Positions 805 through 14,404 of a stretch of 14,674 bases of DNA are shown in pieces. The position numbers and the translations under genes were made by a program. The notes below the pieces were generated by a model, which saw nothing but the letters and a program-made list of their open reading frames with translations, did no database searches and was not told the DNA's origin. The DNA is taken from assembly GCA_041288045.1 (NCBI GenBank), contig JBGGMM010000100.1:1-14674 (forward strand), read 5' to 3'. The DNA is from Pseudobdellovibrionaceae bacterium. GTDB taxonomy: Bacteria; Bdellovibrionota; Bdellovibrionia; Bdellovibrionales; Bdellovibrionaceae. Every line of letters begins with the position of its first letter. The stretch's first letter is position 1.

Positions 805-1344
805 TCAGGCCTCGGAGTTTGGTGTTCGTTCTTTGGTTGGAGGGAGTGCAAAACCAAAATGGTTCTTCGCTGCTTCATAAGTATTATAAACGATCGGGCA
901 GACGCGGGTGTTTTCGACGATGTGCCAGCCGCGGCCGATCATGTGGGAGTTTTCCATATGGGGGTAGCTTCGACAGGTTTCGGGTCTGTGTTCGTAGACG
1001 GAGCATTTGTTGGCTTTTAGGAAAGGGCAGGGTCTTTGTTTGAAGACCAAGTCGCCTTCGAAATCTTTTTTTAGATATTTGGTTTTGAATTCATAGGGGC
1101 TGATCTGGAGGCCATCAGAAAGTCGTTTGATGTCTGTGGATTTGGGAACGATTGCTAGGCTTTTGCAGCAGATGGCGCATTCGGTGCAATCGATTTTTGC
1201 TGAGACTTGGCGGCTGAGTTGGTCAAAGGCATGGGCGACGGTTTGAGAGTCTTTGGATTTGAGCCAGTGGCGAAAGCGCTGGTTTTCATCCCATTTGAGA
1301 TTTCCAAGTGCTTCAATTTTTTTTGGGTCCAAGATCAAATCCAT
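805..1344 (-). CDS. YkgJ/UPF0153 family CxxCxxCC cysteine-cluster (putative Zn/Fe-S-chelating) protein
   Basis: 'CTECAICC' followed by 'PCPFL..NKCSVYEHRPETCRSYP', the canonical 8-Cys signature of this family. Confidence 0.9.
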   Translation of the reverse strand: MDLILDPKKIEALGNLKWDENQRFRHWLKSKDSQTVAHAFDQLSRQVSAKIDCTECAICCKSLAIVPKSTDIKRLSDGLQISPYEFKTKYLKKDFEGDLVFKQRPCPFLKANKCSVYEHRPETCRSYPHMENSHMIGRGWHIVENTRVCPIVYNTYEAAKNHFGFALPPTKERTPNSEA

Positions 1345-1432: not shown

Positions 1433-2077
1433 CTAGTCCTTCACTTCAGCCAAAGAACTGTAGTTGTCGTTGAGCTTTTGTTGGCGCTCAACTTCTTTTT
1501 GCCAGCGAGAGACTTCGCCCTGGTAGCCGCGTTGTTTGGTTTTCCATTCGGCTTCCTGCTGATTCAGTGACTTGGAGCGAGCGTCCAGATCTTTCACCGA
1601 TTTGGCCAGCTGTTCGCTGCGTGATTTCCAGTCAGTTCGCTCTTTGGCAATTTGCTTTTGCTGCTCTTGATAGTTCTGAATATTGGCTTGGCGCTTAGTT
1701 TGATTGTCCTTCAGTTGAGTGATCACCCGAGTGAGCTCCTGGATTTTCTGCTCTTCAGCTGCCATTTCTTTTTGCTCAGTCTGGATCAGCTGATTGATTT
1801 CGGCTTCACCTTTTTCAAAAGACTGAAGCTTTTGATTGTTTTCATTTAGAGCTTTGGCCGCTGTCAGTTTTTGCTCATCGACTTGCGATTTGGCTTTCGT
1901 GACCTCGGTGGCATTTTCCTCGACGATCTTGAGATTCTTTTTATAATCTTCCAAGTTCGCTCTTGAATTGCCCAGATTGCCCTTGAGCTTGTTCAATCCA
2001 TCTTGCGCCGTTGTCTGCGCTTGTGCGAAAGAGACCAAGGCCAAGCTGCAGATAAGAGTTGTGAATTGTGTTTTCAT
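1433..2077 (-). CDS. Secreted long coiled-coil protein of unknown function (last gene of the operon)
   Basis: Sec signal peptide 'MKTQFTTLICSLALVSFAQA'. The mature part is a continuous Q/E/K/L-rich heptad sequence without Pro. It starts 15 nt after the gltC-like stop, with a GGAGA RBS. Confidence 0.8.
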   Translation of the reverse strand: MKTQFTTLICSLALVSFAQAQTTAQDGLNKLKGNLGNSRANLEDYKKNLKIVEENATEVTKAKSQVDEQKLTAAKALNENNQKLQSFEKGEAEINQLIQTEQKEMAAEEQKIQELTRVITQLKDNQTKRQANIQNYQEQQKQIAKERTDWKSRSEQLAKSVKDLDARSKSLNQQEAEWKTKQRGYQGEVSRWQKEVERQQKLNDNYSSLAEVKD

Positions 2078-2092: not shown

Positions 2093-4255
2093 TTAATTTC
2101 CATGCATATTTGACGAGAGCTTGTCTTCAGGAGGGCAGACATTCTTCAGTGAAGAACGGAAGTGCCCCAGCTCATCTTCCCAGATTTCACCGCGGAAATC
2201 CCAATTGAGATCTTTTCCTTTTTCGACTTTCAGTTCAGGTCTTTCTTTCTTGCTGATATCGCCGCCAGCCATTTGATAGCGGATGTGATCGCCAGCGCCC
2301 GAGTACAGTTCATACTGAAGGACTTCAGATTGATCCAAAGTATCGTTCAGTTTTGTAACCATCTGATTGAATCGAGCTTTGACAGCACGGCCGGCATTGC
2401 TGCGATAGCGGGTCTTTTCTTGATCCAATCGGGCCAGCCCCTCAGTGCGAAGATCTTTGATCGAATTTCTGGCTTTCTTGGCAATGTAGTGCTCGATTTT
2501 TTGCGCCATCAATCGCTTTTCTTGATAAGCATAGTCTTCTTTGTAAGAGCTCTTATCGCTGGCGGCATCCATTTTCTTTTTGATTGAAATCAGTTGAGCT
2601 CGAGCATCGTTTTGCGCTGTCAGTGCTTTTCGCTCGGTTCGGATCAAGCCGATGCTGATTTGATTCACTTTTGTCACTTGGTCTTCGACCGAGTTGATCA
2701 TTTTCTGCTCGAGAATGAAGCTTGGATGACGAGTCAGCGAGAAAATGAATTCGCGAGGCAATCCATCCACAGTCTGAAGATCTGGATTCTTAGCCCAAGT
2801 CTTCACAGTGTCATAGTAATTCACGCCGTCTTTCATTTTCGTTTCGTAATCTTTCATTTGCTTCAGCACGGGTGTGTACTTTTTCTTAAAATCATAAACG
2901 ACTTTGGCGCCATCACCGTATTGGCAGAGGTTCAAGTAACCCACTGTGCGCACAACGTATGACTCAGGAGTGAAAGCTTTTTTAAAGAAATCCGTGTGCA
3001 AACTGAACATGTTGCCGGCAGCACCTTCGTAGTCCTCTGAAAGAACCTGGCTCCAGGCCTGTTCGATCATGGCTTGCATCCATTCCGGATGAGTTTTATC
3101 GACCTTTAAATAATTGGCAAAGGCCTCTTTGTACTGACCCGCTTGAAAATGCAGACGGGCCAGAGTCAAAGCGACAATCGATCTGAATTCAGATTTGGGT
3201 CTTTTCTCTTCCACATCTGCAAGCACAGTCTGTTGCAAGCCGATGGCTTCTTGGACCTGATTGCCCCGATAGAGGATCAGAGATTTCAAGAAGAGCGCAT
3301 CAATGTAAAGAGGGGAGTCCATCAGAATTTCATCGACACCAGAAAAAGCTTTGGTCAGATCGCCTTTGTCCAAATAGTATTTGGCGCGATTCATTTGGTA
3401 TTGATCAGCTTTCTCCAGTTCAATATTGAAAGCTTCCAATTTTGGATCCAGAACAGGCACGAGCTCTTTATCACCTTCAGCGGCATTTTTTGCCAAGCTG
3501 TAGGCGGCTTTTTTCTGCCATTCAGGGCTCTTGTCTGAAAGAACCTGAAGCATTCTGAATTTGTATTCGGAGTAAAGCCCCAGTGCTTTCGAAGTCAAAG
3601 CCAAGAGGTAAGTGGCTTCGGTTTTAACTGATGCATCCTTTTCATCCAAAAGCTCGGCGAAAAGGGCCAGCGCCATGTTGTAATTCTTTTTGATTTCCAA
3701 AAAGATCAGTGCCTGAAGCATCTTCATTTGCACTGGTGGCATCTCGTCGATTTTTTTCAAATCTGGCTTTGGAATATCGGCAGTCGTCGGAGTGGTCACT
3801 GGCGCAAACTGTGGAATATCCGGAGCCATCGCACCAGGATCGATTTTCACAATTTGCTTGGGCCCTGCCGCAGGAGCGACGTTTTTGAGATTGTATTTCT
3901 CAATGGAAATCGGCGCCACTTTCGGAAGCTGAGTGATTGTGAACGTTTTAAATACTTTTTCTTTTGGTATTTCAACTGGAGCGATTTGTGAAGCTTTGAG
4001 CTTGTCTTCTTCGCCCAGATTCAGGCGAGGAATGTTCTTGACCCGAACTGGCTCCAGTTTCCCATTGATCATTCGTTTTTGAACGAGATCAAACTGAGGG
4101 ACATTGGATTGTTTGAGCTTCAGCTCAGAGCTGGGAGCCCGTCCTTTTTTCTGAGTGACCAAATCCGCAGCCTCAGCAACTTGAGTTGCCGCGAGGCCAA
4201 GGATTGCCAATCCCGAAATCACGATCCGTTTTGTGTGCTTCTTCTGTGATTTCAT
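2093..4255 (-). CDS. gltC: GltC-like periplasmic TPR protein
   Basis: Signal peptide ending in 'QVAEA', then a Pro-rich N-terminal linker and TPR arrays. Has 'AAGNMFSLHTDFF...PESYVVRTVGYLNLCQY' and a C-terminal 'WDFRGEIWEDELGHFRSSLKNVC', resembling the GltC W-x-F-x-GE-x-W-x-DELG tail. It follows the beta-barrel gene, as gltC follows gltA in Myxococcus. Start moved to ATG4255 (RBS GGGAGGG at 4262-4268). Confidence 0.75.
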   Translation of the reverse strand: MKSQKKHTKRIVISGLAILGLAATQVAEAADLVTQKKGRAPSSELKLKQSNVPQFDLVQKRMINGKLEPVRVKNIPRLNLGEEDKLKASQIAPVEIPKEKVFKTFTITQLPKVAPISIEKYNLKNVAPAAGPKQIVKIDPGAMAPDIPQFAPVTTPTTADIPKPDLKKIDEMPPVQMKMLQALIFLEIKKNYNMALALFAELLDEKDASVKTEATYLLALTSKALGLYSEYKFRMLQVLSDKSPEWQKKAAYSLAKNAAEGDKELVPVLDPKLEAFNIELEKADQYQMNRAKYYLDKGDLTKAFSGVDEILMDSPLYIDALFLKSLILYRGNQVQEAIGLQQTVLADVEEKRPKSEFRSIVALTLARLHFQAGQYKEAFANYLKVDKTHPEWMQAMIEQAWSQVLSEDYEGAAGNMFSLHTDFFKKAFTPESYVVRTVGYLNLCQYGDGAKVVYDFKKKYTPVLKQMKDYETKMKDGVNYYDTVKTWAKNPDLQTVDGLPREFIFSLTRHPSFILEQKMINSVEDQVTKVNQISIGLIRTERKALTAQNDARAQLISIKKKMDAASDKSSYKEDYAYQEKRLMAQKIEHYIAKKARNSIKDLRTEGLARLDQEKTRYRSNAGRAVKARFNQMVTKLNDTLDQSEVLQYELYSGAGDHIRYQMAGGDISKKERPELKVEKGKDLNWDFRGEIWEDELGHFRSSLKNVCPPEDKLSSNMHGN

Positions 4256-4278
4256 AAAAATCCCTCCCAAACTCCTGA

Positions 4279-5106
4279 TTAGAAAAATACTGTTAAACCA
4301 AGGAGAACGGTTGTGTCTTGTTGGGTAAAATCACCCAGTGGTCGATCCGCTTCTGTTTGTCCAGTCGCCGTGTTGATGAAATATCTTTCTTTGTCCTGCT
4401 TGCTCCATTTGTTTTTGATATCAAAGCGAACAGCGAAATGCTCATGGAAAAAGAGCTGCTGAGTGATATCAAAATTATACCCAATGGTCGTTTTATTTTC
4501 TGCAATGAGATTTCTTGAGCCAGTGGCAGGGTCAAAGGGTGCAGACTTCTGAATTTGATAATTCATTTGGCCGACACCGACAGCAAATTGCATATCAAAG
4601 TACATGATCTTTCGATCCCAAAAACTCATTTTCGCATAGAAGGGAACCACGATCATGTTGAGCGATGTGTAAGATTCAAAAGTGTTGTAATCAGGTGCGA
4701 ATTCGTTCTGATTGATGAAGGCATCTGTTGAATCGTTGTCCTTCAAGTTTCCGATCTCATGCGCAACTTCCACACCCCAACGCTCGTTGAAGTAGTAGCC
4801 AACAGAAGCATTGGTCATTCGGCCATAAGAGTAAGCATCATTCACCAAAGGTCCGTAACCAAGACTGACGAAAACCTTTTTCGCTTTCGAATAGGTTCGG
4901 TTCTGAACGACGCTGAAATCAGCATCCTTCGCAGACCAGTATTTGTCTTCGAGTTTTTTCAGATCCAGTTTGTCAGATCCACGGTCGCTCTGTGCTGGGG
5001 GTTGTGACGTCCCCTGAGCTGGCGTCTGTGTTTGGGTCTGAGCTTGCGCTTGCAGTCCCAATGCTGTCACGGTTGCGATGGCCGCAACATACCACTTCTT
5101 CATCAT
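4279..5106 (-). CDS. GltA/GltB-family outer-membrane beta-barrel protein
   Basis: Signal peptide, 'FSVVQNRTYSK' N-terminal motif, 'VPFYAKMSF...IMYFDMQFAVGVG', alternating beta-strands and a C-terminal aromatic BAM signal 'LLGLTVFF'. RBS GGAGG at 5112-5116; start is ATG5106 or ATG5103. Confidence 0.8.
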   Translation of the reverse strand: MMKKWYVAAIATVTALGLQAQAQTQTQTPAQGTSQPPAQSDRGSDKLDLKKLEDKYWSAKDADFSVVQNRTYSKAKKVFVSLGYGPLVNDAYSYGRMTNASVGYYFNERWGVEVAHEIGNLKDNDSTDAFINQNEFAPDYNTFESYTSLNMIVVPFYAKMSFWDRKIMYFDMQFAVGVGQMNYQIQKSAPFDPATGSRNLIAENKTTIGYNFDITQQLFFHEHFAVRFDIKNKWSKQDKERYFINTATGQTEADRPLGDFTQQDTTVLLGLTVFF

Positions 5107-5144: not shown

Positions 5145-6611
5145 TTAGTTCGTGCTCTTAAAGAGGAAAGGATAAGTCACGAGGACTTTGGTCCCACCCT
5201 CCGGTGCCGGAAATTTCCATTTTGCAACTCTTTGCAGAATACATCCCTCGACGGTTGCATTTCTTAAAGTACTATCACCAATTCTTTGTGTTTCAACTGA
5301 TCCACTGCCAGCGATTGTGAACTTGATCCCGACTTTTCCGTAAAGATCCGGATTGGCCGAAAGCTGTCGTTCGTAGCAGTAAAGAATTTCACCTAATTTA
5401 GAGCGGATGTAAGCCGCGATGACTTCACGATCCAATCCGCCGACCACATCGCCTTCATCTTCAAGCAAACCAACACCACCGGATCCGGTTTTACCTGCGG
5501 CCATGGTGCCCATGCCACCAGTTCCCTGACCACCGGCTTTTCCGTTGGTAGAAATCGTGATGCCAGTGCCTTTACCTTCTGCGGACCAGTCTTTTCCAGA
5601 TTTGTTGATAGATCCCAATGCAGCTAGTGCTCGCCCAGTCGGAGCCGTTCCGGCAGCCACACCGGAAGTCACAACCACATTGGCTGATCGAGCAGCCACA
5701 GCCGAAATTTTTCCGACCAGAGAGCTGATTCGGCCACTCGCCAAGCTCTTGATCATGCTTGCCGCTTTGCTGGAGCCAGTGCCTTTATTCTTAGGAGCAG
5801 CAGCTTGTTGAGGCTTCTGATCCGGTTGAACTTCTTTCGGAGCGCTTTGAGCTTGTTTTTTCGGAGGTTTCGGCTGCTGTTCCAAACGGATTTCCCGAGG
5901 AGGAAGAGCCGTTGTCAAAGCATCATCCAAAGTTTCTTGCTTGGGGCTGAAAAGAAACAACAAAGCCAGAACCAAAGCACAGGCCAAAGTGAATGCGAGC
6001 GATTTTCGTCCGTCTTCATCGACCAGATCTTTTGGATTCATGTGTTTGAGAGCTTGCACATCGGTCAAATAAACTGTTCGTTGCGAAACTTCCAAATGTG
6101 CAATCGGAGTTTTCTTCCACTCGGTCGCTTTTTCGGGAGTGAACTTGGTGCGAGTGGGATCGTATTGAGAAACGAAAGTTTTGTGAACAGGAATCAAAAC
6201 TGTTTCCAGCAGAGTGCTGCCAGAGTAAACAGTGAAAAGCTGAAAGGGGTGACGACCAGCGCCCGAATGAGCCACATCGCCTTCAAGCCGAGAGAAAAGG
6301 GCGGGGCGGCCTTCCATCACTTTGATGTGCAAAGTCGTTGTGCCCAAGCGGATTTCAGAATCCTTCTCGATGCACATTTCGGTTTTGCCATCATTCATTT
6401 CTGAATGCTTGGTTTGCAAATCCAAATTGACGTAGTGCCATTTGTCGTTTTTGTATTCGAAGACACCCTGGATCCCTTTGATGGAATCCACTGTGGTGCG
6501 CAGATCGGCATGCTTGGAATTCCCGAAAGTGAGAACACCTTGCTCTGATCGGAGCTTCCACGTTTTCACAAGGCCCGTCGGACCTCTATGCTCAATCAAA
6601 AGATTCTGCAT
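5145..6611 (-). CDS. gltG: GltG/PglI-like inner-membrane energy transducer (degenerate FHA - TM - linker - TonB C-terminal-like AgmX/PglI domain)
   Basis: FHA-like N-terminus ('VLTFGNSKHADL...EIRLGTTTLHI'), one TM ('LAFTLACALVLALLFLF') and a Pro/Lys then Gly-rich periplasmic linker. The C-terminus is 'GGLDREVI...YCYERQL..NPDLYGKV...VEGCI...WKFPAPEGG..V.VTYPFLF'. Confidence 0.85.
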   Translation of the reverse strand: MQNLLIEHRGPTGLVKTWKLRSEQGVLTFGNSKHADLRTTVDSIKGIQGVFEYKNDKWHYVNLDLQTKHSEMNDGKTEMCIEKDSEIRLGTTTLHIKVMEGRPALFSRLEGDVAHSGAGRHPFQLFTVYSGSTLLETVLIPVHKTFVSQYDPTRTKFTPEKATEWKKTPIAHLEVSQRTVYLTDVQALKHMNPKDLVDEDGRKSLAFTLACALVLALLFLFSPKQETLDDALTTALPPREIRLEQQPKPPKKQAQSAPKEVQPDQKPQQAAAPKNKGTGSSKAASMIKSLASGRISSLVGKISAVAARSANVVVTSGVAAGTAPTGRALAALGSINKSGKDWSAEGKGTGITISTNGKAGGQGTGGMGTMAAGKTGSGGVGLLEDEGDVVGGLDREVIAAYIRSKLGEILYCYERQLSANPDLYGKVGIKFTIAGSGSVETQRIGDSTLRNATVEGCILQRVAKWKFPAPEGGTKVLVTYPFLFKSTN

Positions 6612-6620
6612 ACTTCACCT

Positions 6621-6905
6621 CTAGCGAACGTATTGAGCGGATTCCCGAATTCTCGAATCCATGTCCCGTTGCACATCGTGCAAAGGCATGAACTTGATCC
6701 CGCGTTTTTGCACGAGATAAGCTCCGTCAGGATTCCTTACGGTTCCCTTCAAATCCATCTCAGCAAAGTTGACCTCTTGCACTTTTCGGACGGTCTTGGA
6801 CTTTGCCTGAGACAGATGACCGGAAAGTGCAACTGTTAGCCCTAAGACCAGGGCTGTCAGTCGGATAAAGGTCTTGTTGTTGTTGGTTCGTGCTGTTGTT
6901 TTCAT
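6621..6905 (-). CDS. gltF: GltF/CglF-like small exported protein
   Basis: Signal peptide, then 'EVNFAEMDLKGTVRNPDGAYLVQKRGIKFMPL', resembling the GltF pattern (IDF-x-D-x-x-I-x-G-x-x-x-x-P-x-G-x-Y). Located directly before gltG, with an ATGA overlap with the upstream gene at 6902-6905. Confidence 0.75.
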   Translation of the reverse strand: MKTTARTNNNKTFIRLTALVLGLTVALSGHLSQAKSKTVRKVQEVNFAEMDLKGTVRNPDGAYLVQKRGIKFMPLHDVQRDMDSRIRESAQYVR

Positions 6906-9900
6906 TCTTGACCTCCATCATTGTCTTTTCCAGTAACGTTCTGAGGTTGTAAGACAGTGACAGTGTGTTTACCTTTTAAAAAGTTCAATTTTCTTTGAAT
7001 CCAATCTTTCATATCCGCATTGCCAGCAGTTTTCAGAGCTGATTCATAAGCTGTGACAGCTTTCGCAGAATCAAATCTGTAAATTTCCTGAATGCGGCCG
7101 AGCTGCAGCCAGAGATCAGCAGGAGCTGTCGCGCTCTTCGCAGACTCTTCGGCAAATGCCACGGCTTTATCAAATTCACCTTTTTGCGCTTGGCATTCGC
7201 TCATCACTGGACCCAGGTTGTATTTGGCGACTGAACTTCGGTCGAGTTTTCCAAAATCCTCCATCACCGAGAAGCAGTCACCTTGAGCAAAGCTGACAAT
7301 TCCATGCATGAGGATTGTCTCTGGAGTTTTGATTCCCAGATCATGAGCCTTGATGAATGCCGCATTGGCATGGGCGAAATCTTCGGCCTGATAAAGGGCG
7401 CGGCCTTTTTGATAGAGCAAGAAAGGCACATCGGCTGATTTCTTCAGAGCCAAATCCACAAGCCAAGCGCTCTTTTCAAATTTACCCTGCATTTCAGCGA
7501 CGAGGCTCAAGTAGAAAGCGCCCAGAGCGGACTTTGGATCTTTTCGTGTGATCGCCATTGCCAATTTCTCTGTTTGATTGGCATTTTTGGTCAGAACGCA
7601 AGCGTTGGCCTTGCGTGAGAGCTGCAGAATATTGGCGGTCTTATCTGCATCCGTGTATCCACATTTGTCAGAGTTCGAAGCTTCGTAACGAGTGGCTTCC
7701 ATCAAAAGACCTTCTGACCCGAAAGCGGGGAGATAAACTTTCATTTGATCTTTCGAAAGGTTCTTCACTTGTGGCTTCACAGTCTCTTCCACTGGCAAGC
7801 TTGCAAAGTCGACTTCGACAGAGCCAGCAGCTTTGGATTCTTTCGCCAGCTTCTGCAGTTGTTTATCAGTGTCGACTTTCTTTTCAAGGATCGGTGTCAC
7901 CAGCTGAGTGAGCTGGGCTGCTAAAGCCTTTTTATCATCTGGAGTCAATGCGGCTTCATCTTTCAAATTCGGGTGGCCAACAGTGTCCACATAGTTGGTG
8001 TAGATTCTGTTGAGACCTTGCAGGGCCTGATGTTTGGTATTTGGATCTTTGGCGATCTTGGCAGCTGTCAGATAAGCCGTTTGAGCTTTGTCCAGTTTTT
8101 CGGTCTTGATGCTCAAGACCACTGCCAGTTTTTCAACTGTGGTTTTGGTTCTGGTTTCGACAAATTCTCTTTCTAAAACCTTGGCTTGAACCAGACGGGC
8201 GCGAGCGCGGATGTCGTCATCGGTTTTACCATCTTCGCCAACTAAGGCTTTTGCTGAATTGAAAGCTTCTGACTGCTTTCCAGAAGTCAAAAGGGCTTCC
8301 ACACGCTTCACGCGAATTTCGGAAGCATAAGGTTCATGGCCCATAGAAACAATTTTGTCTTCGATTTTTTTGTACTCAGCCGAAGACTCTTGGCCTTTCA
8401 TGGTGGTGAGAAGCTTGGCGTAGATCTTTCCATGGTTGGCTGTGTTCTTTTCGGTGAGCTGTTTTTTCAAAGACTCTTGAGCTTCTTTGGTTCTGCCTTC
8501 GATCAAATAGAGTTCGCTGGCAGCTTCAACATATTTTTCTTTGTCTTTTTCGGACACAGAGGCAATCTGTTGCATTGTCTCTGCTGCGGGTAGGATCAAA
8601 CCTGAATCCGCATAGTGTTTGGCAGCATCTTTCAATGCATCCAAAGAGCGCTTGTCATCAGGATAAGTCTTTGCGTACTGATGGGCGATTTCGGCTCCAT
8701 CGATCACTTTGCCATCGGCATAGTAAAGAGAGAGAGCCTGCCAGAGAGAATCTTTGGCAAGAGGAGAAGTCTTGTTCTCATTGTAGAAAGCCACCAAGCG
8801 TTCTGCTGCTTTGGTTTTCTCGCTGGATTTTGCATACTCTTGGATTTCGCTGTAATCGGCTTCACGGATGATTTTTCCAAGAGCGGCTTTACGAGTGTCA
8901 TCTTTGGTTTGGCCGGCGATTTGTTTTGAAAATTCTTTGATCGCTTTGAAATCTTTGCGGTCATTCAGAATGTCCAGGATCAAATCTTCAGATTTGCGTT
9001 TGAATTCACCGGCACCGGGATCAGCGGCCAATGGCGCCAGCCACTTTTCAGCTTCGCCATGATTGTTCTGTTCATAGGCGATGAAGCCGATTTTAAATTT
9101 CACCTGAGTGGCGTGTTCACCTTTTGGATAGCGCTGCAAATAGGTTTGGCAAAGACGAACCAGATCGCCTTCGTCTGTTGCTTCTTTTTTCTTGGCTGTG
9201 GCTTTTTCAAGAGCGACGATCGATGAATAAGTGGAATCATGAGCGATGGTTGTATCCACAGCTTTGGTTCCAGCGTATTCGTACTGATTGGAGGCTTTTC
9301 GATAATCTCCCAATTGGAAAAGAAGCTCAGCATAAGCATAGCGTGATTTTGCATCTGGTTTTTTAGGATCTTCGCGGTCCAAGTGAAGGCGGAAAGCCTC
9401 TTGAGTGTATTCGGCGATTTCACGAGCGGCTGTGGCATTTTTATTTTTCTGCCAGAGATCCCACCATTTTTTGGCCATGTCGACGTTGGCTTTGGCGAAA
9501 TCATAATCACATTCAGATTCAGCAATGTCTTTATTGGCATCTCTCCACTCAGAACCTTTTTTACAGATGGCAGCAGCAGCCACCAAGTGCTTCAAAGAAT
9601 CATGTCGGGCACGAGCAACTTCGTTGCCAGTGATCATCAGCATTTCCATCTTCACGCGAAAACGTGAAAGTGGCTGTTTTTTCATAAATTCAGTGAGGAA
9701 CACATTCATTTCTTTATGACGAGAGTGAGAGTCAAAGAGGCGACCCAGATTGTAGATGGCTTCACCCACTTCGTCCGGAGTCCCAATCCTCGAAAAGAAA
9801 GCATAAGCTTTATCAGCGGGCTGAGATTCACCGTAGAAAAGAGTCAGATCGCGCAAAGACTCAGCTCGTAGATTGTGGTTGACCAACTGTCCATCCTGAG

Positions 9901-10654
9901 TGGCAGGATCGTGGTATTTCACAACCTGGATCAGTTTTCTCATAGCATCTTCGTTCTGGCGAAGATTGTAAAGAGTCCAAGCGGATTTATAGAGACCGTA
10001 AGAGTAAACTCGAGATTTTGGATATTTTTCGATGGCTTTGAAATATTCCAGAGCATCTTTGAAGTTTTTATTTTCGTAGGCCATTTCGCCAAGTGCCAGA
10101 TAAGAGTCAGGCACAAGCGGTGAGCGTGGATGTTGAGTCACAACTTTGTAATAGAGAGCTTCCGCATTTTTTCCCATTTTCACTTGTTGGCTGGCGAAAG
10201 CATTGTTGAAAAGAACTCCATCCATTTCACGGAATTTTGGGAAATCTCTCTCAATTTTGGTGTAAACCTGAATCGCGCGCTTCAGAGAAGCTGCCGAAGA
10301 TTCACTTTTGATTTCAGGTGGAATGAATTTTACCGGACCGCTGCTGTCATTTCGGTGCAGATCAAAGAAACGTCCGGATTTGGCTCTTCGCATGTAGAGC
10401 TCAGCCAGTCGGTACCAAAGATCAGGTTCCATGCTGGAACCCTTTTTCTTTTTCAAAATTGCAATCAAAGATTGAATGGCTTGGTTTTCAGTTTTAGTGA
10501 TGAGCACTTCGCTTTGCAGAGCTTTTTTCTCGTTGACGTTTTCGTCTGTTCCATTGATTCGAAGCTCGGGCAATAGGCCCTTTTCACCTTTTTCAGCAGA
10601 AAAAGCGAGAGAAGGGATCAGCAGAAGTGTCAAAATCAGTAGGCTTCGATTCAT
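6902..10654 (-). CDS. gltD: GltD/AgmU-like large periplasmic TPR protein (possible GltD-GltE fusion)
   Basis: 1250 aa with signal peptide 'MNRSLLILTLLLIPSLAFS'. Dense TPRs include 'DLWYRLAELY', 'PRSPLVPDSYLALGEMAY', 'YGLYKSAWTLYNL' and 'LRAESLRDL'. It lies between the motor genes and gltF-gltG. Confidence 0.75.
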   Translation of the reverse strand: MNRSLLILTLLLIPSLAFSAEKGEKGLLPELRINGTDENVNEKKALQSEVLITKTENQAIQSLIAILKKKKGSSMEPDLWYRLAELYMRRAKSGRFFDLHRNDSSGPVKFIPPEIKSESSAASLKRAIQVYTKIERDFPKFREMDGVLFNNAFASQQVKMGKNAEALYYKVVTQHPRSPLVPDSYLALGEMAYENKNFKDALEYFKAIEKYPKSRVYSYGLYKSAWTLYNLRQNEDAMRKLIQVVKYHDPATQDGQLVNHNLRAESLRDLTLFYGESQPADKAYAFFSRIGTPDEVGEAIYNLGRLFDSHSRHKEMNVFLTEFMKKQPLSRFRVKMEMLMITGNEVARARHDSLKHLVAAAAICKKGSEWRDANKDIAESECDYDFAKANVDMAKKWWDLWQKNKNATAAREIAEYTQEAFRLHLDREDPKKPDAKSRYAYAELLFQLGDYRKASNQYEYAGTKAVDTTIAHDSTYSSIVALEKATAKKKEATDEGDLVRLCQTYLQRYPKGEHATQVKFKIGFIAYEQNNHGEAEKWLAPLAADPGAGEFKRKSEDLILDILNDRKDFKAIKEFSKQIAGQTKDDTRKAALGKIIREADYSEIQEYAKSSEKTKAAERLVAFYNENKTSPLAKDSLWQALSLYYADGKVIDGAEIAHQYAKTYPDDKRSLDALKDAAKHYADSGLILPAAETMQQIASVSEKDKEKYVEAASELYLIEGRTKEAQESLKKQLTEKNTANHGKIYAKLLTTMKGQESSAEYKKIEDKIVSMGHEPYASEIRVKRVEALLTSGKQSEAFNSAKALVGEDGKTDDDIRARARLVQAKVLEREFVETRTKTTVEKLAVVLSIKTEKLDKAQTAYLTAAKIAKDPNTKHQALQGLNRIYTNYVDTVGHPNLKDEAALTPDDKKALAAQLTQLVTPILEKKVDTDKQLQKLAKESKAAGSVEVDFASLPVEETVKPQVKNLSKDQMKVYLPAFGSEGLLMEATRYEASNSDKCGYTDADKTANILQLSRKANACVLTKNANQTEKLAMAITRKDPKSALGAFYLSLVAEMQGKFEKSAWLVDLALKKSADVPFLLYQKGRALYQAEDFAHANAAFIKAHDLGIKTPETILMHGIVSFAQGDCFSVMEDFGKLDRSSVAKYNLGPVMSECQAQKGEFDKAVAFAEESAKSATAPADLWLQLGRIQEIYRFDSAKAVTAYESALKTAGNADMKDWIQRKLNFLKGKHTVTVLQPQNVTGKDNDGGQE

Positions 10655-10677: not shown

Positions 10678-11265
10678 CTAGTTGCCGACGACTGTCGCCA
10701 TCTTCATTTTCGGAAATCCCGCCATTGAAGCTGTGTACATCACCTTTCTTAAAACACCGTAGGAGAGATTCTGATCTGCTTTGACGATGATCTTTCCGTC
10801 CAAAATACCGGGATTGGGTTTTCCAGCAGGGATCAGATTGCCATGGGCATCTTTGATCATTTCTGGAGTGCCCGCAGCCAAATTGGCTTGGTACTTGGCA
10901 TCTCTTTCCTTTTCCTCTTTGGCGGCTTTTTCAAGAGCTGCAAAAAGAGGTTTGATAAAATTGGTGTCGTTGGGGTCAATGTCACCGCGAGTGAAATCAT
11001 CAGACTGCAAGGAAGCAATGACACGGTCTTCGATTTTCAACTGTGTGCGGGTCACTGAAATTTGCAATGCCATGACAGGATTGGCTTCTGAATTCGAAGT
11101 CGGAAGAGCCTGATCCTTATCTGGAATCACCTGAACTTCAGAAGTTGTATAAGTCTGAAGTAGGAACACCAGCATAATCGTGAACATGTCCGTCATTGAA
11201 GTGACGTTCAATGCGAAAGTCGAATTGTGATTGCCTTTAAGTTCAAATCTTTTTCTTCTGCTCAT
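10678..11265 (-). CDS. aglS: ExbD/TolR-family motor subunit (AglS-like), conserved Asp present
   Basis: TM 'LNVTSMTDMFTIMLVFLLQ' with Asp26 (GAC 11190-11188). C-terminal ExbD motif 'IIVKADQNLSYGVLRKVMYTASMAGF'. Confidence 0.8.
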   Translation of the reverse strand: MSRRKRFELKGNHNSTFALNVTSMTDMFTIMLVFLLQTYTTSEVQVIPDKDQALPTSNSEANPVMALQISVTRTQLKIEDRVIASLQSDDFTRGDIDPNDTNFIKPLFAALEKAAKEEKERDAKYQANLAAGTPEMIKDAHGNLIPAGKPNPGILDGKIIVKADQNLSYGVLRKVMYTASMAGFPKMKMATVVGN

Positions 11266-11268
11266 ATA

Positions 11269-11811
11269 TCACCCGTCGAAAATATTTGTGAAAACAACGT
11301 CAGGGAACATATAGTCTGTTTTGACGGTTTTGTTTTCTTTGGCGTCGTACACTGGGAAAGTCACTGTTTTATCTCGGCTGCGTCGAGCTTCATCCGTCAT
11401 TCGAACGACATCCTTGTAAGGAACATTCGAATCCGGAGTGAGCTCGATTTTGAAAACTTCGGGGTTCTCACCCTTGATTCTCTGCAAAGTCTTGTGCAGA
11501 GTTTGATAATCGAAGTTTCCCTCTTTCATCGGAACTGTTTCTGTCTTCTGAGCTCCGCCTTTTGCAATGATCACTTGGATGCCGTCTTTGGTTGAAGCTC
11601 GGATCTGAATGTTGGTGGTGGGTTTTTGCTCTTGCTGTTGAATTGCTTCTTTCACAGCTTGGGGCAAATCCGTTTCCACTGTCATCACTTGCACGAAAGC
11701 AGAAGAGACCAGAAGAACGGGGACGAGCTTGACCATGACCGCCAACAGGGGCGCCAGGTCCAGTTCGAACTCGTAGGGATTCAGAGTTTTGATTCTTCTT
11801 AGTTTTCTCAT
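11269..11811 (-). CDS. ExbD/TolR-family motor subunit (AglQ position), TM Asp replaced by Ala
   Basis: TM 'ELDLAPLLAVMVKLVPVLLVSSAF' and a C-terminal ExbD-like 'IELTPDSNVPYKDVVRMTDEAR'. Lies directly after the TolQ/ExbB gene. Confidence 0.8.
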   Translation of the reverse strand: MRKLRRIKTLNPYEFELDLAPLLAVMVKLVPVLLVSSAFVQVMTVETDLPQAVKEAIQQQEQKPTTNIQIRASTKDGIQVIIAKGGAQKTETVPMKEGNFDYQTLHKTLQRIKGENPEVFKIELTPDSNVPYKDVVRMTDEARRSRDKTVTFPVYDAKENKTVKTDYMFPDVVFTNIFDG

Positions 11812-11851: not shown

Positions 11852-12568
11852 TTAAGACGCACGGTTGTTTGTTGGTGGCGCCTTTGTTGTCATTGAGTCT
11901 TTTTTGATTGAATCTGGATAAATTGCGTTCTTTGACAGTGATGGAACATGTGATCCAGTCAAAAGCTCTGTCAGCTTTCCACATTTTTCCTGAAGCTGCT
12001 CAACCAGAACATTTTGGCGAGAAACCAGGAACGAGTAGAAAACCATGAGCGGAATCGCAACAGCCAGACCCAAAGCCGTGGTGTACATCGAAATCGAAAT
12101 ACCGTTAGCAAGCAAAGTCTGCTTCATCGCAGGATCTGCAGTCGCAACCGCTTGGAAGGAAAGGATCAGACCGTGGATGGTACCCAAAAGACCCATCAAA
12201 GTCGCAACGTTGGCAAGCATTGAGAGATAGTGCAATCGGCGAGTGAACATCGGAACTGTCTCAGCCATTGAAATATCGTGGGCTTGGAAAATCGCATCGT
12301 CTTCGCGATCGGCTTTTTCCAAGATGTTTTTGAAAGCTTGAGCCAGAGGCTTTGTGGTCAATTGCGAGCAAAGAACCAAAGCTTCATCTGTTTTGCGAGC
12401 CAGAACCAAGGTTTGCACTTTGGTCATGAATTCTTCGGTGTTCATTCCGTAACGGAAATAAAGAACCATCGCTCTTTCGGCAACGAGAGCCAAAGAGGCG
12501 AGACCCATAAACATAATGCACCATCCGATAAAACCTGAAGCATTGAGAAATTCGATTAAGCTACCCAT
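11852..12568 (-). CDS. aglR: MotA/TolQ/ExbB proton-channel family protein (AglR-like)
   Basis: TM1 near the N-terminus, then TM2 'LANVATLMGLLGTIHGLILSF' and TM3 'GISISMYTTALGLAVAIP'. Followed by two ExbD genes, matching the aglRQS arrangement. Confidence 0.85.
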   Translation of the reverse strand: MGSLIEFLNASGFIGWCIMFMGLASLALVAERAMVLYFRYGMNTEEFMTKVQTLVLARKTDEALVLCSQLTTKPLAQAFKNILEKADREDDAIFQAHDISMAETVPMFTRRLHYLSMLANVATLMGLLGTIHGLILSFQAVATADPAMKQTLLANGISISMYTTALGLAVAIPLMVFYSFLVSRQNVLVEQLQEKCGKLTELLTGSHVPSLSKNAIYPDSIKKDSMTTKAPPTNNRAS

Positions 12569-12583
12569 GATGTATACTCCTTC

Positions 12584-13171
12584 TTATTTGTTTTCTTTCT
12601 TAAATTCTTGAATCCAATTTTGAATCTGATCGTCACCCGTTTCCGACTTGGCCATGAACTTCACTGCATAGTGAATTCCGGTGTCGTGCTGGATGCGGGA
12701 TTTCACCAAGCGCTTGGTGAGAATCTGAGCCGTGCAATTGAAAGCCACGTCTTTGTCGTTTCTTGAGCGAAAGTGAATGTGGACGATGTGGCCGGGGAGC
12801 AGAACTGGATTCTTCATCAGAACCAAAGCGCCACCTTCGCTTAAATTTTCCACAGTTCCTTCCCACAAAGTCTGCTGGTCATTCACATAAACCGGAAGTT
12901 TGCAGTAAACCCGCTCATGCTCCCGCCGTGAGAAAACCTGTTCGGATTTGTTCTTATCAGCCAACTGAGCCAGCCGACCGGCTGAGAACTCTTCAATGTC
13001 CGCAAGCGGAGTCCAAGCTTCCATGTGCGGAGCCCAAACATAATCGAATCCGAAAACCAGGCTGGATTGCATCATGCGAATCATTTCTTCATAAGTGTAA
13101 GGCCCGTACTGAGTCTCACCTTTGAGAACATGCCATTCGTTGCTTGTTTGTACTTCAATTGCCAAACTCAT
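12584..13171 (-). CDS. Cytoplasmic GYF_2 (DUF4339)-PilZ fusion protein
   Basis: aa ~12-62 'EWHVLKGETQYGPYTYEEM...DYVWAPHMEAWTPLADIEEF' fits the GYF_2 pattern (W..GP....L....VW..M..W). aa ~82-175 is PilZ with R83xxxR87 ('REHER') and N109xSxGG ('NLSEGG'). No signal peptide or TM. Confidence 0.85.
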   Translation of the reverse strand: MSLAIEVQTSNEWHVLKGETQYGPYTYEEMIRMMQSSLVFGFDYVWAPHMEAWTPLADIEEFSAGRLAQLADKNKSEQVFSRREHERVYCKLPVYVNDQQTLWEGTVENLSEGGALVLMKNPVLLPGHIVHIHFRSRNDKDVAFNCTAQILTKRLVKSRIQHDTGIHYAVKFMAKSETGDDQIQNWIQEFKKENK

Positions 13172-13180
13172 ATCGACCTC

Positions 13181-14398
13181 TTAGTTTGATGCTCGTACTG
13201 GTGTGAAAAGAATCTGAACTTTGTCACCATCATTTGGAACTGCACTCGGAGCGAATGTGATTTCCCAAGTGGCTGCATTGTAAGTCCAACCGTCCGTTGC
13301 CGAGTTAGGGATTTCAACATCGTTCACAATCACTTTGATCGTTTCAACCAAAGGTTCTCGATTCAATTTAAACACAGCACTCAGTTGCATTGCTTTTGCA
13401 GCAATTACTTCTAACGACTGACCAAAGTCGGCACAAAGAGAAGTCTTCGCTCCGCCTGTGGCATCGGCCAGCTGCATGTATCGGCGGCCCAAACGGATTC
13501 CTGCGAAAACGGGCTCGTTCAGTTGAGTGCGGCAAGCTGTATCCAGAACTCCGATCATATGAACATTGTAATTTCCAGCTCCGGCCACTCCATCCAAAAG
13601 AGTTTTGTAGGAGTCAATCGTGTCCAAGCGGCTGTCTTTATATAAATTGTAGAGATCCGTGCTTGTTGATGAAAAGGGCAGGACCAAAGGATCTTCAGCG
13701 GGATCATTACTAGGAGCTTCGGAGCGGTAAGCGCCAGCCACATTCGAAGAAGTGTTCACAGAAAAGTCATCTTCGTCGCTGACGATGATCACTGCTAGAG
13801 AAGCATCGGCACGTCGGAAATTGCTGTTGGCGGGATCATTGAAAAAGGCTTTCAGACTTGCAAAAGGACGCTCGTCCCCAGTTCCACAAATGCCTTGAGT
13901 GGCATTGGTCAAAAAGACTTGAGCGATATTCGGAGTCAAAGCATCCATCACAGAAATTGTGCTATCAGTTAATTTAGCGATTGGATTCAAAAGGCTTCCG
14001 CTGCAATTATTGAAATTGGTGCTTGTATCCTGATTGGTATAAAACTTGAGGGCACCAGTTCGGGCTCCTGAAAGAAGAGCTTTGGTTGTGGCATTGGATT
14101 GATAAGCCGCTCTCCAAGCATCAGAGCCAATCACAGCCATATGATAGTCATAACCTTTTTGCTGAAATCCATTGATAAAGCTTTGGAAATTGGCTGTCAG
14201 ATTTTCCTGAGAAGACTTCATCGAGCCTGAGTTGTCGATCACCCATAAAATATCAATTGGTTTTGGGACATAGGTGGCCGACTGTTGAAAGCTCGAGCCT
14301 GAATCAAGCAGTGAAAACGAGCGGTCCGTTTTTTCACAAGCGGTCGTCGCCACTGCTGCGGCACCGAACATTGCGATCATTAGCTTGTTTGTTTTCAT
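13181..14398 (-). CDS. cglB: CglB-like vWA-domain lipoprotein (putative surface adhesin)
   Basis: Lipoprotein-type signal 'MKTNKLMIAMFGAAAVATTA-C', MIDAS DxSxS 'DILWVIDNSGS', later 'VIIVSDEDD', and a small C-terminal beta domain. About 405 aa, similar in size to CglB, and first gene of an agl-glt operon. Start moved to ATG14398 (GGAGG at 14407-14411, 8-nt spacing). Orthology to CglB is inferred. Confidence 0.65.
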   Translation of the reverse strand: MKTNKLMIAMFGAAAVATTACEKTDRSFSLLDSGSSFQQSATYVPKPIDILWVIDNSGSMKSSQENLTANFQSFINGFQQKGYDYHMAVIGSDAWRAAYQSNATTKALLSGARTGALKFYTNQDTSTNFNNCSGSLLNPIAKLTDSTISVMDALTPNIAQVFLTNATQGICGTGDERPFASLKAFFNDPANSNFRRADASLAVIIVSDEDDFSVNTSSNVAGAYRSEAPSNDPAEDPLVLPFSSTSTDLYNLYKDSRLDTIDSYKTLLDGVAGAGNYNVHMIGVLDTACRTQLNEPVFAGIRLGRRYMQLADATGGAKTSLCADFGQSLEVIAAKAMQLSAVFKLNREPLVETIKVIVNDVEIPNSATDGWTYNAATWEITFAPSAVPNDGDKVQILFTPVRASN

Positions 14399-14404
14399 AC
14401 TCAC

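Follow-up and report, generated by a model that had tools for sequence, protein, structure and literature searches.

A GYF-PilZ gene in an Agl-Glt-type operon of Bdellovibrionales and the AglR tail as its candidate docking site

The systems closest to the one described here are GltJ (AgmX) of Myxococcus xanthus, the flagellar brakes YcgR and MotI/DgrA, and, in Bdellovibrio bacteriovorus HD100, the protein Bd1482 together with its paralogue Bd3100. GltJ meets each of its partners with a different part: the GYF domain takes hold of a proline-rich sequence in AglZ, MglA-GTP binds to the linker, and MglB is recruited by the zinc ribbon (PMC11135422). A first-pass annotation of the present DNA had described this GYF domain as a hub for both AglZ and MglB; the AglZ part stands, and the recruitment of MglB belongs to the zinc ribbon. 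The origin of gltJ has been placed in the Myxococcales, and the same study reports GltH, I, J and K as absent from Bdellovibrio and favors Bd0828-0838 as the gliding motor (Luciano 2011, PMC3169522). MglB is given as absent from HD100 (PMC3983030).

Bd1482 was put forward in 2012 as a c-di-GMP receiver for gliding (Hobley 2012, PMC3271064). It is found between the MIDAS lipoprotein Bd1483 (PMC11003981) and aglR, Bd1481 (PMC2277423, PMC12546842), with aglQ, bd1480, beyond (PMC9140294), in an operon of 11 tags, Bd1473-Bd1483 (PMC2797640). The combination of GYF and PilZ has been given as an architectural theme in a supplement legend (Attia 2024, PMC11135422). The novelty that had been claimed for the present gene is thus forestalled by these two publications. 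Both the gene with its position and the underlying hypothesis had already been published, and what is new is the comparative evidence and the AglR tail as a docking candidate. Neither the GYF domain nor the AglR tail appears in the published passages on Bd1482 that were available. A literature search, with most subscription papers outside it, turned up no paper that brings Bdellovibrio, PilZ and GYF together, a single one that names Bd1482, no description of the AglR tail (PMC11761067 included, in its available text), and, in the texts open to it, no identified cyclic-dinucleotide receptor of the Bdellovibrio gliding machine. In the part of the Lai 2025 proteome tables that was searched, Bd1482 is absent and Bd1481 and Bd3100 are present (PMC12546842).

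The operon and its GYF-PilZ protein

The window, which is the whole 14,674-nucleotide stretch of Pseudobdellovibrionaceae DNA analyzed here, contains a cluster of 11 co-directional genes on the minus strand, as many as there are tags in the Bd1482 operon. It begins with a predicted lipoprotein adhesin of the vWA/MIDAS type (13181..14404), which resembles Bd1483 and has a DxSxS motif at residues 57-61; its matches to the MIDAS adhesin model (E 9.7e-15) and the CglD model (E 5.8e-8) are both under cut-off. The GYF-PilZ gene (12584..13171) follows, and then a Bd1481-like AglR of the TolQ/ExbB type with three transmembrane segments (11852..12568). Two ExbD/TolR-type subunits recognized by Pfam come next, the first AglQ-like (11269..11811) and the second AglS-like (10678..11265). 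They are followed by a 1250-residue TPR protein (6902..10654), labeled GltD/GltE-like because relatives have two genes there, by a small CglF/GltF-like protein (6621..6905; E 2.4e-4, under cut-off), and by a GltG-like protein (5145..6611), whose GltG match is under cut-off (E 4.2e-43) and whose AgmX/PglI C-terminal domain is over it. The cluster is completed by an outer-membrane beta-barrel that is probably GltA/B-like (4279..5106; TIGR04565 over cut-off), a GltC-like TPR protein (2093..4270; E 6.2e-35, under cut-off) and a coiled-coil protein (1433..2077).

AglRQS, GltD/E/F/G/C and an outer-membrane barrel are therefore combined in one cluster, which is the composition of an expanded Agl-Glt core cluster, and all of the Glt matches are under the equivalog cut-offs. 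A profile search agreed with the earlier observation that the operon has no GltJ. Scans for promoters and terminators gave counts at the level of shuffled sequence (11 versus 12.6 and 20 versus 18.1), and repeats around the GYF-PilZ gene were limited to short, chance-like pairs.

Directly downstream of the cluster is a gene for a protein with a CxxCxxCC zinc/iron-chelating domain (805-1344, minus strand). Beyond it, on the plus strand, is a tyrosine transposase of the REP-associated/IS200-like type, recognized by weak matches (124-795) and preceded by a perfect 19-nt inverted repeat at 11-56. Nine further close pieces, 87-95% identical, occur in the genome, several of them at contig ends, and the hairpin was found again on contig C57.

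The GYF-PilZ gene is separated from the adhesin frame, which ends at 13181, by 9 nt and from aglR, which starts at 12568, by 15 nt, as first reported. It encodes 195 amino acid residues. A GYF_2 domain occupies residues 13-62 (12986..13135; E 4.7e-12, 45.9 bits versus a cut-off of 25.8) and is the sole Pfam match in the N-terminal part, where no YcgR-type N-terminal domain is found; its W13, G23, P24, W46 and W53 are invariant and align with the GYF domain of GltJ. A PilZ domain occupies residues 82-188 (12608..12928; E 5.1e-14, 52.9 bits versus 22.5) and retains both motifs, R83-x3-R87 and N109-x-S111-x-G113-G114. The protein has no transmembrane-like segment, the maximum 19-residue hydropathy being 1.19. 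The first description of a soluble two-domain protein with intact motifs is therefore borne out by Pfam, sequence and hydropathy.

Among 45 aligned relatives with a single GYF domain, R83, R87, S111 and G114 are invariant, and position 109 holds N in 15 of them, S in 29 and T in 1. The canonical N109 is kept in the clade of the window protein, and S is found in most of the other single-GYF relatives. The AlphaFold model has a mean pLDDT of 86, and its top Foldseek matches are the c-di-GMP-bound PilZ of YcgR (5y6g) and MotI (5vx6). Together, the motifs and the predicted fold make it likely that the PilZ domain of the protein is a binding site for a cyclic dinucleotide.

YcgR, the MotI/DgrA brakes and related PilZ motor brakes resemble the window protein in being soluble, in having two domains and in placing a PilZ domain of matching fold at the C-terminus, and the proposed target of both kinds of protein is a MotA/TolQ-family subunit. 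The window protein differs from them in that its N-terminal domain is GYF_2 instead of YcgR-N, and in that its gene is located in a gliding-type operon. With GltJ it shares the GYF_2 domain and its aligned W/GP/W/W residues, and both are linked to an Agl-Glt machine; in a family profile search against solved structures, the best sequence match is the GltJ GYF domain (7z3c, E 2.2e-4). However, the zinc ribbon, linker, membrane helix and TonB-like C-terminus of GltJ are missing, with PilZ present instead. The GltJ model NF033761 scores 14.5 bits against a cut-off of 450, over residues 9-63 only, and in none of the 5 genomes scored did it have a match over cut-off, the matches being confined to a C-terminal or middle region.

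Conservation, paralogues and the wider family

Named Bdellovibrio relatives of the window protein are about 40% identical to it (WP_413288019.1, 41%), and in a quick tree the operon-linked single-GYF copies form one clade (27 rows, SH-aLRT 96). Bd1482 occupies the same slot as the window gene, between the MIDAS lipoprotein gene and aglR. Judged by gene order and this clade, the window gene is very likely the orthologue of Bd1482.

Across the phylum, 71 of 301 genomes had a match. In family f1 the order adhesin, GYF-PilZ, aglR is seen in 34 of the 35 genomes having the short copy. Outside f1, a copy lies within about 2.1 kb of an agl or glt gene in 26 of 35 genomes. The arrangements number at least five: the copy may precede the adhesin gene, aglR, or a TPR gene that has no aglRQS with it; it may lie after the second exbD and ahead of the TPR gene, stand divergently, or follow gltG. 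The expected conserved linkage to agl-glt clusters is thus borne out. At cut-offs chosen by the analyst (E up to 1e-42 for an aglR orthologue and up to 1e-30 for a strong GYF-PilZ match), 106 of 151 genomes of the order have both genes, 6 the aglR orthologue alone, 14 GYF-PilZ alone and 25 neither, counts in which kin are not independent. In family f6 the aglR orthologue is found in 4 of 26 genomes, and the same 4 have a strong GYF-PilZ match.

These distributions make a role as cyclic-dinucleotide input to an Agl-Glt-type machine plausible. They do not support the further idea that the protein is dedicated to the motor, since some genomes keep the gene without the operon. G024, a flagellated genome in one contig, keeps the short copy and has no orthologous aglR, and the single-contig genomes G105, G302 and G306 have a member of the family but not this aglR. 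In addition, there are eight genomes in which aglRQS has been relocated and the GYF-PilZ gene remains with the TPR and gltG genes, which points equally to a partner other than AglR. The protein might accordingly be an adaptor of the same surface machine that acts on the GltG N-terminus, a cytoplasmic scaffold or a vWA-adhesin-linked factor, with the AglR tail serving a separate role; this is judged unlikely. The predicted cytoplasmic part of the window's GltG contains no PP, which counts against GltG as that partner, and the paralogues speak for a partner of this kind.

The window's genome has a long GYF-GYF-PilZ paralogue (G000:C4:44957-45790; L039:6949-7761) upstream of a vWA gene. We take DUF4339, a name used in published annotation, to be GYF_2. 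Bd3100, a PilZ gene (PMC2797640) annotated as DUF4339 (PMC12546842), adjoins the vWA gene bd3099 (PMC9140294) and is the type that this paralogue matches. The Bd3100 type differs from the window protein in having a second GYF domain, in the E that it carries at motif position 109, and in its f1 surroundings, where motor genes are missing. The long copy stands before a vWA adhesin gene, with no motor gene close by, in 22 of the 27 f1 genomes checked (of 36), and three loci from genomes that lack this aglR (L045, L206, L207) show the same pairing with a vWA adhesin. A third paralogue type (G000:C217; L068:9556-10347) has relatives in G016 and G235 that adjoin a second agl-glt cluster. In a quick, midpoint-rooted tree, the long f1 paralogue clusters with the copies that are operon-linked in other families. 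This placement suggests that in f1 the head of the ancestral operon moved out together with its adhesin and that a duplicate pair stayed.

It had been proposed that the GYF switch of GltJ was detached from the membrane and placed under direct cyclic-dinucleotide control. That derivation is unsupported, because the likeness is confined to the GYF domain with no zinc ribbon or linker, gltJ is described as having arisen in the Myxococcales and as lacking in Bdellovibrio, and the nearest relatives are soluble GYF-GYF-PilZ proteins.

In the ESM Atlas, named GYF_2/PilZ clusters have 154, 66 and 248 members, mostly from Bdellovibrionota where the phylum is known, and the named loci with a GYF-PilZ gene are Bdellovibrio-type metagenome assemblies. 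A search for longer fused GYF/PilZ forms found none among 4749 candidates; it was a weak search that missed the 424-534-residue proteins of the f29 and f34 loci. At those loci (L048, L049, L051, L095-L098) a GYF-GYF-PilZ gene is followed by the longer GYF/PilZ gene of 424-534 residues, and the three loci scanned have a PhoH-PIN gene after it. In three genomes a GYF-GYF protein is encoded directly after a gene of the ChaN/Tiki haem-binding family (L065:6869-7273, L070:7378-7800, L071:6115-7620). Several genomes also encode a 981-residue TPR protein with a weak N-terminal GYF_2 match (L067:6364-9309), possibly a cytoplasmic scaffold.

The proline-rich tail of AglR

The AglR of the operon ends in a tail of roughly residues 206-238 (11852..11953, minus strand) that carries an aromatic-Pro motif, Y217-P218, and a PP, P231-P232, and is a candidate ligand of the GYF domain. 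The topology of the TolQ/ExbB family is well established, and on that basis the tail should be cytoplasmic. The tail is 47-60 residues long in 57 of the 62 rows from the orthologous AglR clade, and PP is present in 50 of these 57; outside the clade it occurs in 1 of 55 rows. Ten rows that were the window itself or near-duplicates were dropped from the count. Among further rows, the tail is long in 15 of 16 (9 with PP) and, in another set, in 18 of 19 (15 with PP). The invariance of P232 in alignment A3 was excluded as a count, its seven non-f1 rows having been picked for PP tails. Where aglRQS lies away from the GYF-PilZ gene (eight genomes) the tail is kept, with the aromatic-Pro motif in all eight and PP in seven.

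A scan of f1 found a short-type match, at E up to 1e-51, in 123 of 132 genomes. The nine misses comprise six diverged copies within the operon, one genome with copies elsewhere and two with a long copy only. Those two, the sister genomes G298 and G442, are the only ones of the 132 in which no short copy was found, and the AglR of both ends at the same point, without the tail. In f2, a clade of five genomes (G032, G172, G232, G247 and G383; support 0.99) has short, proline-free AglR tails, and in the same five the GYF-PilZ gene is missing, displaced or diverged. These are two independent losses of the tail, and in both the linked GYF-PilZ gene has been lost or has decayed. The evidence from co-loss is limited because there are only two events, both in broadly changed lineages: the G298 operon is diverged throughout (its TPR gene encodes 882 residues, 29% identical), and the f2 short-tail clade has small genomes with no FliG match. 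The joint loss in G298 and G442 is left unexplained if the partner of the protein is something other than AglR.

Several cases fit less simply. G383 has an adjacent GYF-PilZ copy with intact motifs despite its short AglR tail, and in genus g5 and most of the f8 rows read, a long tail that lacks PP accompanies an intact gene. G449 was considered as a counter-example, with the tail kept and the gene not adjacent, and was set aside because two copies are present elsewhere in frames of roughly 200 residues. A structure prediction that paired GYF-PilZ (6-192) and the AglR tail (200-238) scored 0.01 in a run without folded controls and is given no weight for or against docking.

Many AglR orthologues, some of them short-tailed, end in K/R-small-S/A (window 11852-11863), an ending that presumably resembles protease-recognition C-termini.

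Because the GltJ GYF domain binds a proline-rich sequence, and because tail and gene are lost together, it is likely that the GYF domain docks on the proline-rich cytoplasmic tail of AglR, the product of the next gene. Combined with a PilZ domain that likely binds a cyclic dinucleotide, this would give a signal-gated brake or clutch on the Agl-Glt-type motor. The tentatively preferred reading, held at somewhat less than even confidence, is therefore an adaptor gated by a cyclic dinucleotide: its GYF domain would hold the AglR tail, and the adaptor would brake this motor or uncouple it. That in Bdellovibrionales such a soluble protein, by gripping a stator-like AglR tail, replaces the MglA/MglB/GltJ switch of Myxococcus on one Agl-Glt motor is a larger proposal, and a somewhat unlikely one.

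Second messengers, flagella and the function of the operon

Gliding in Bdellovibrio needs cGAMP and not c-di-GMP, which is tied to flagellar motility (Lowry 2022, PMC9140294), so that the earlier statement that c-di-GMP controls gliding is not supported by that study. The effect of cGAMP is exerted partly on the transcript level of bd1480, and the synthase is known (PMC9140294). For the GYF-PilZ protein there is a slight lean toward a c-di-GMP brake over an activator or a cGAMP receiver, since YcgR and MotI offer a parallel and gliding is not sustained by c-di-GMP alone.

The same observations bear on a second reading, in which the protein acts as a c-di-GMP-dependent brake on the flagellar motor, as YcgR and MotI do, and its gene sits in a surface-motility operon so that switching on the operon stops swimming. 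Bd1482 was reportedly treated as a flagellar brake in a 2021 paper by Sathyamoorthy, and we take Bd1482 and Bd3100 to be the two PilZ receptors with which such a role is associated. A 2026 review (PMC13689555) does assign a flagellar brake role to two Bdellovibrio PilZ receptors. The assignment of c-di-GMP to flagellar and of cGAMP to gliding motility, the fact that the closest folds are YcgR and MotI, the short copy of G024 in a genome with flagella and without the operon, and the presence of FliG in 36 of 36 f1 genomes scored all point the same way. On the other hand, the likeness to YcgR and MotI is confined to the PilZ domain, and G298 is flagellated, yet has lost the short copy and the AglR tail together. 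Moreover, five genomes without a FliG match (G105, G302, G306, G307 and G313) keep strong family members, and the closed genome G105 is also without FlhA and flagellin matches. The family is therefore not flagellum-only, though this persistence says less about the short clade because the copies read are of the long, Bd3100-like type. A flagellar brake is, on balance, rather unlikely.

It is also conceivable, and quite unlikely, that the operon encodes a proton-driven envelope machine for secretion, surface modification or adhesion instead of gliding, and that GYF-PilZ regulates that machine. The 2026 review allows that some clusters may be transporters (PMC13689555), the lack of GltH, I, J and K in Bdellovibrio comes with another cluster favored as the gliding motor (PMC3169522), and the Glt matches that are all under equivalog cut-offs are consistent with such a function. 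Against it, bd1480 is surface-induced and is reduced in non-gliding mutants (PMC9140294), and insertions in Bd1481 and Bd1483 weaken biofilm predation (PMC2277423). Like the favored Bd0828-0838, a different set of genes that is up at prey exit, Bd2368-2377 (Lai 2025, PMC12546842), counts against taking this operon as the gliding motor.

If the larger proposal, in which such an adaptor replaces the MglA/MglB/GltJ switch, is true, this would be the first case of a second messenger acting directly as a clutch on a gliding motor, and the PilZ domain might be one that reads 3',3'-cGAMP. The candidate receptor gene has been in print since 2012, and the addition made here is a named candidate for the docking site, the 30-residue AglR tail, which makes the old proposal testable and offers a way to tell a clutch for gliding apart from a brake on the flagellum.

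Small-genome Bdellovibrionales that have no FliG match and have kept agl-glt-type genes include, besides the five genomes named above for their strong family members, the five of the f2 short-tail clade (G383, G032, G172, G232 and G247).
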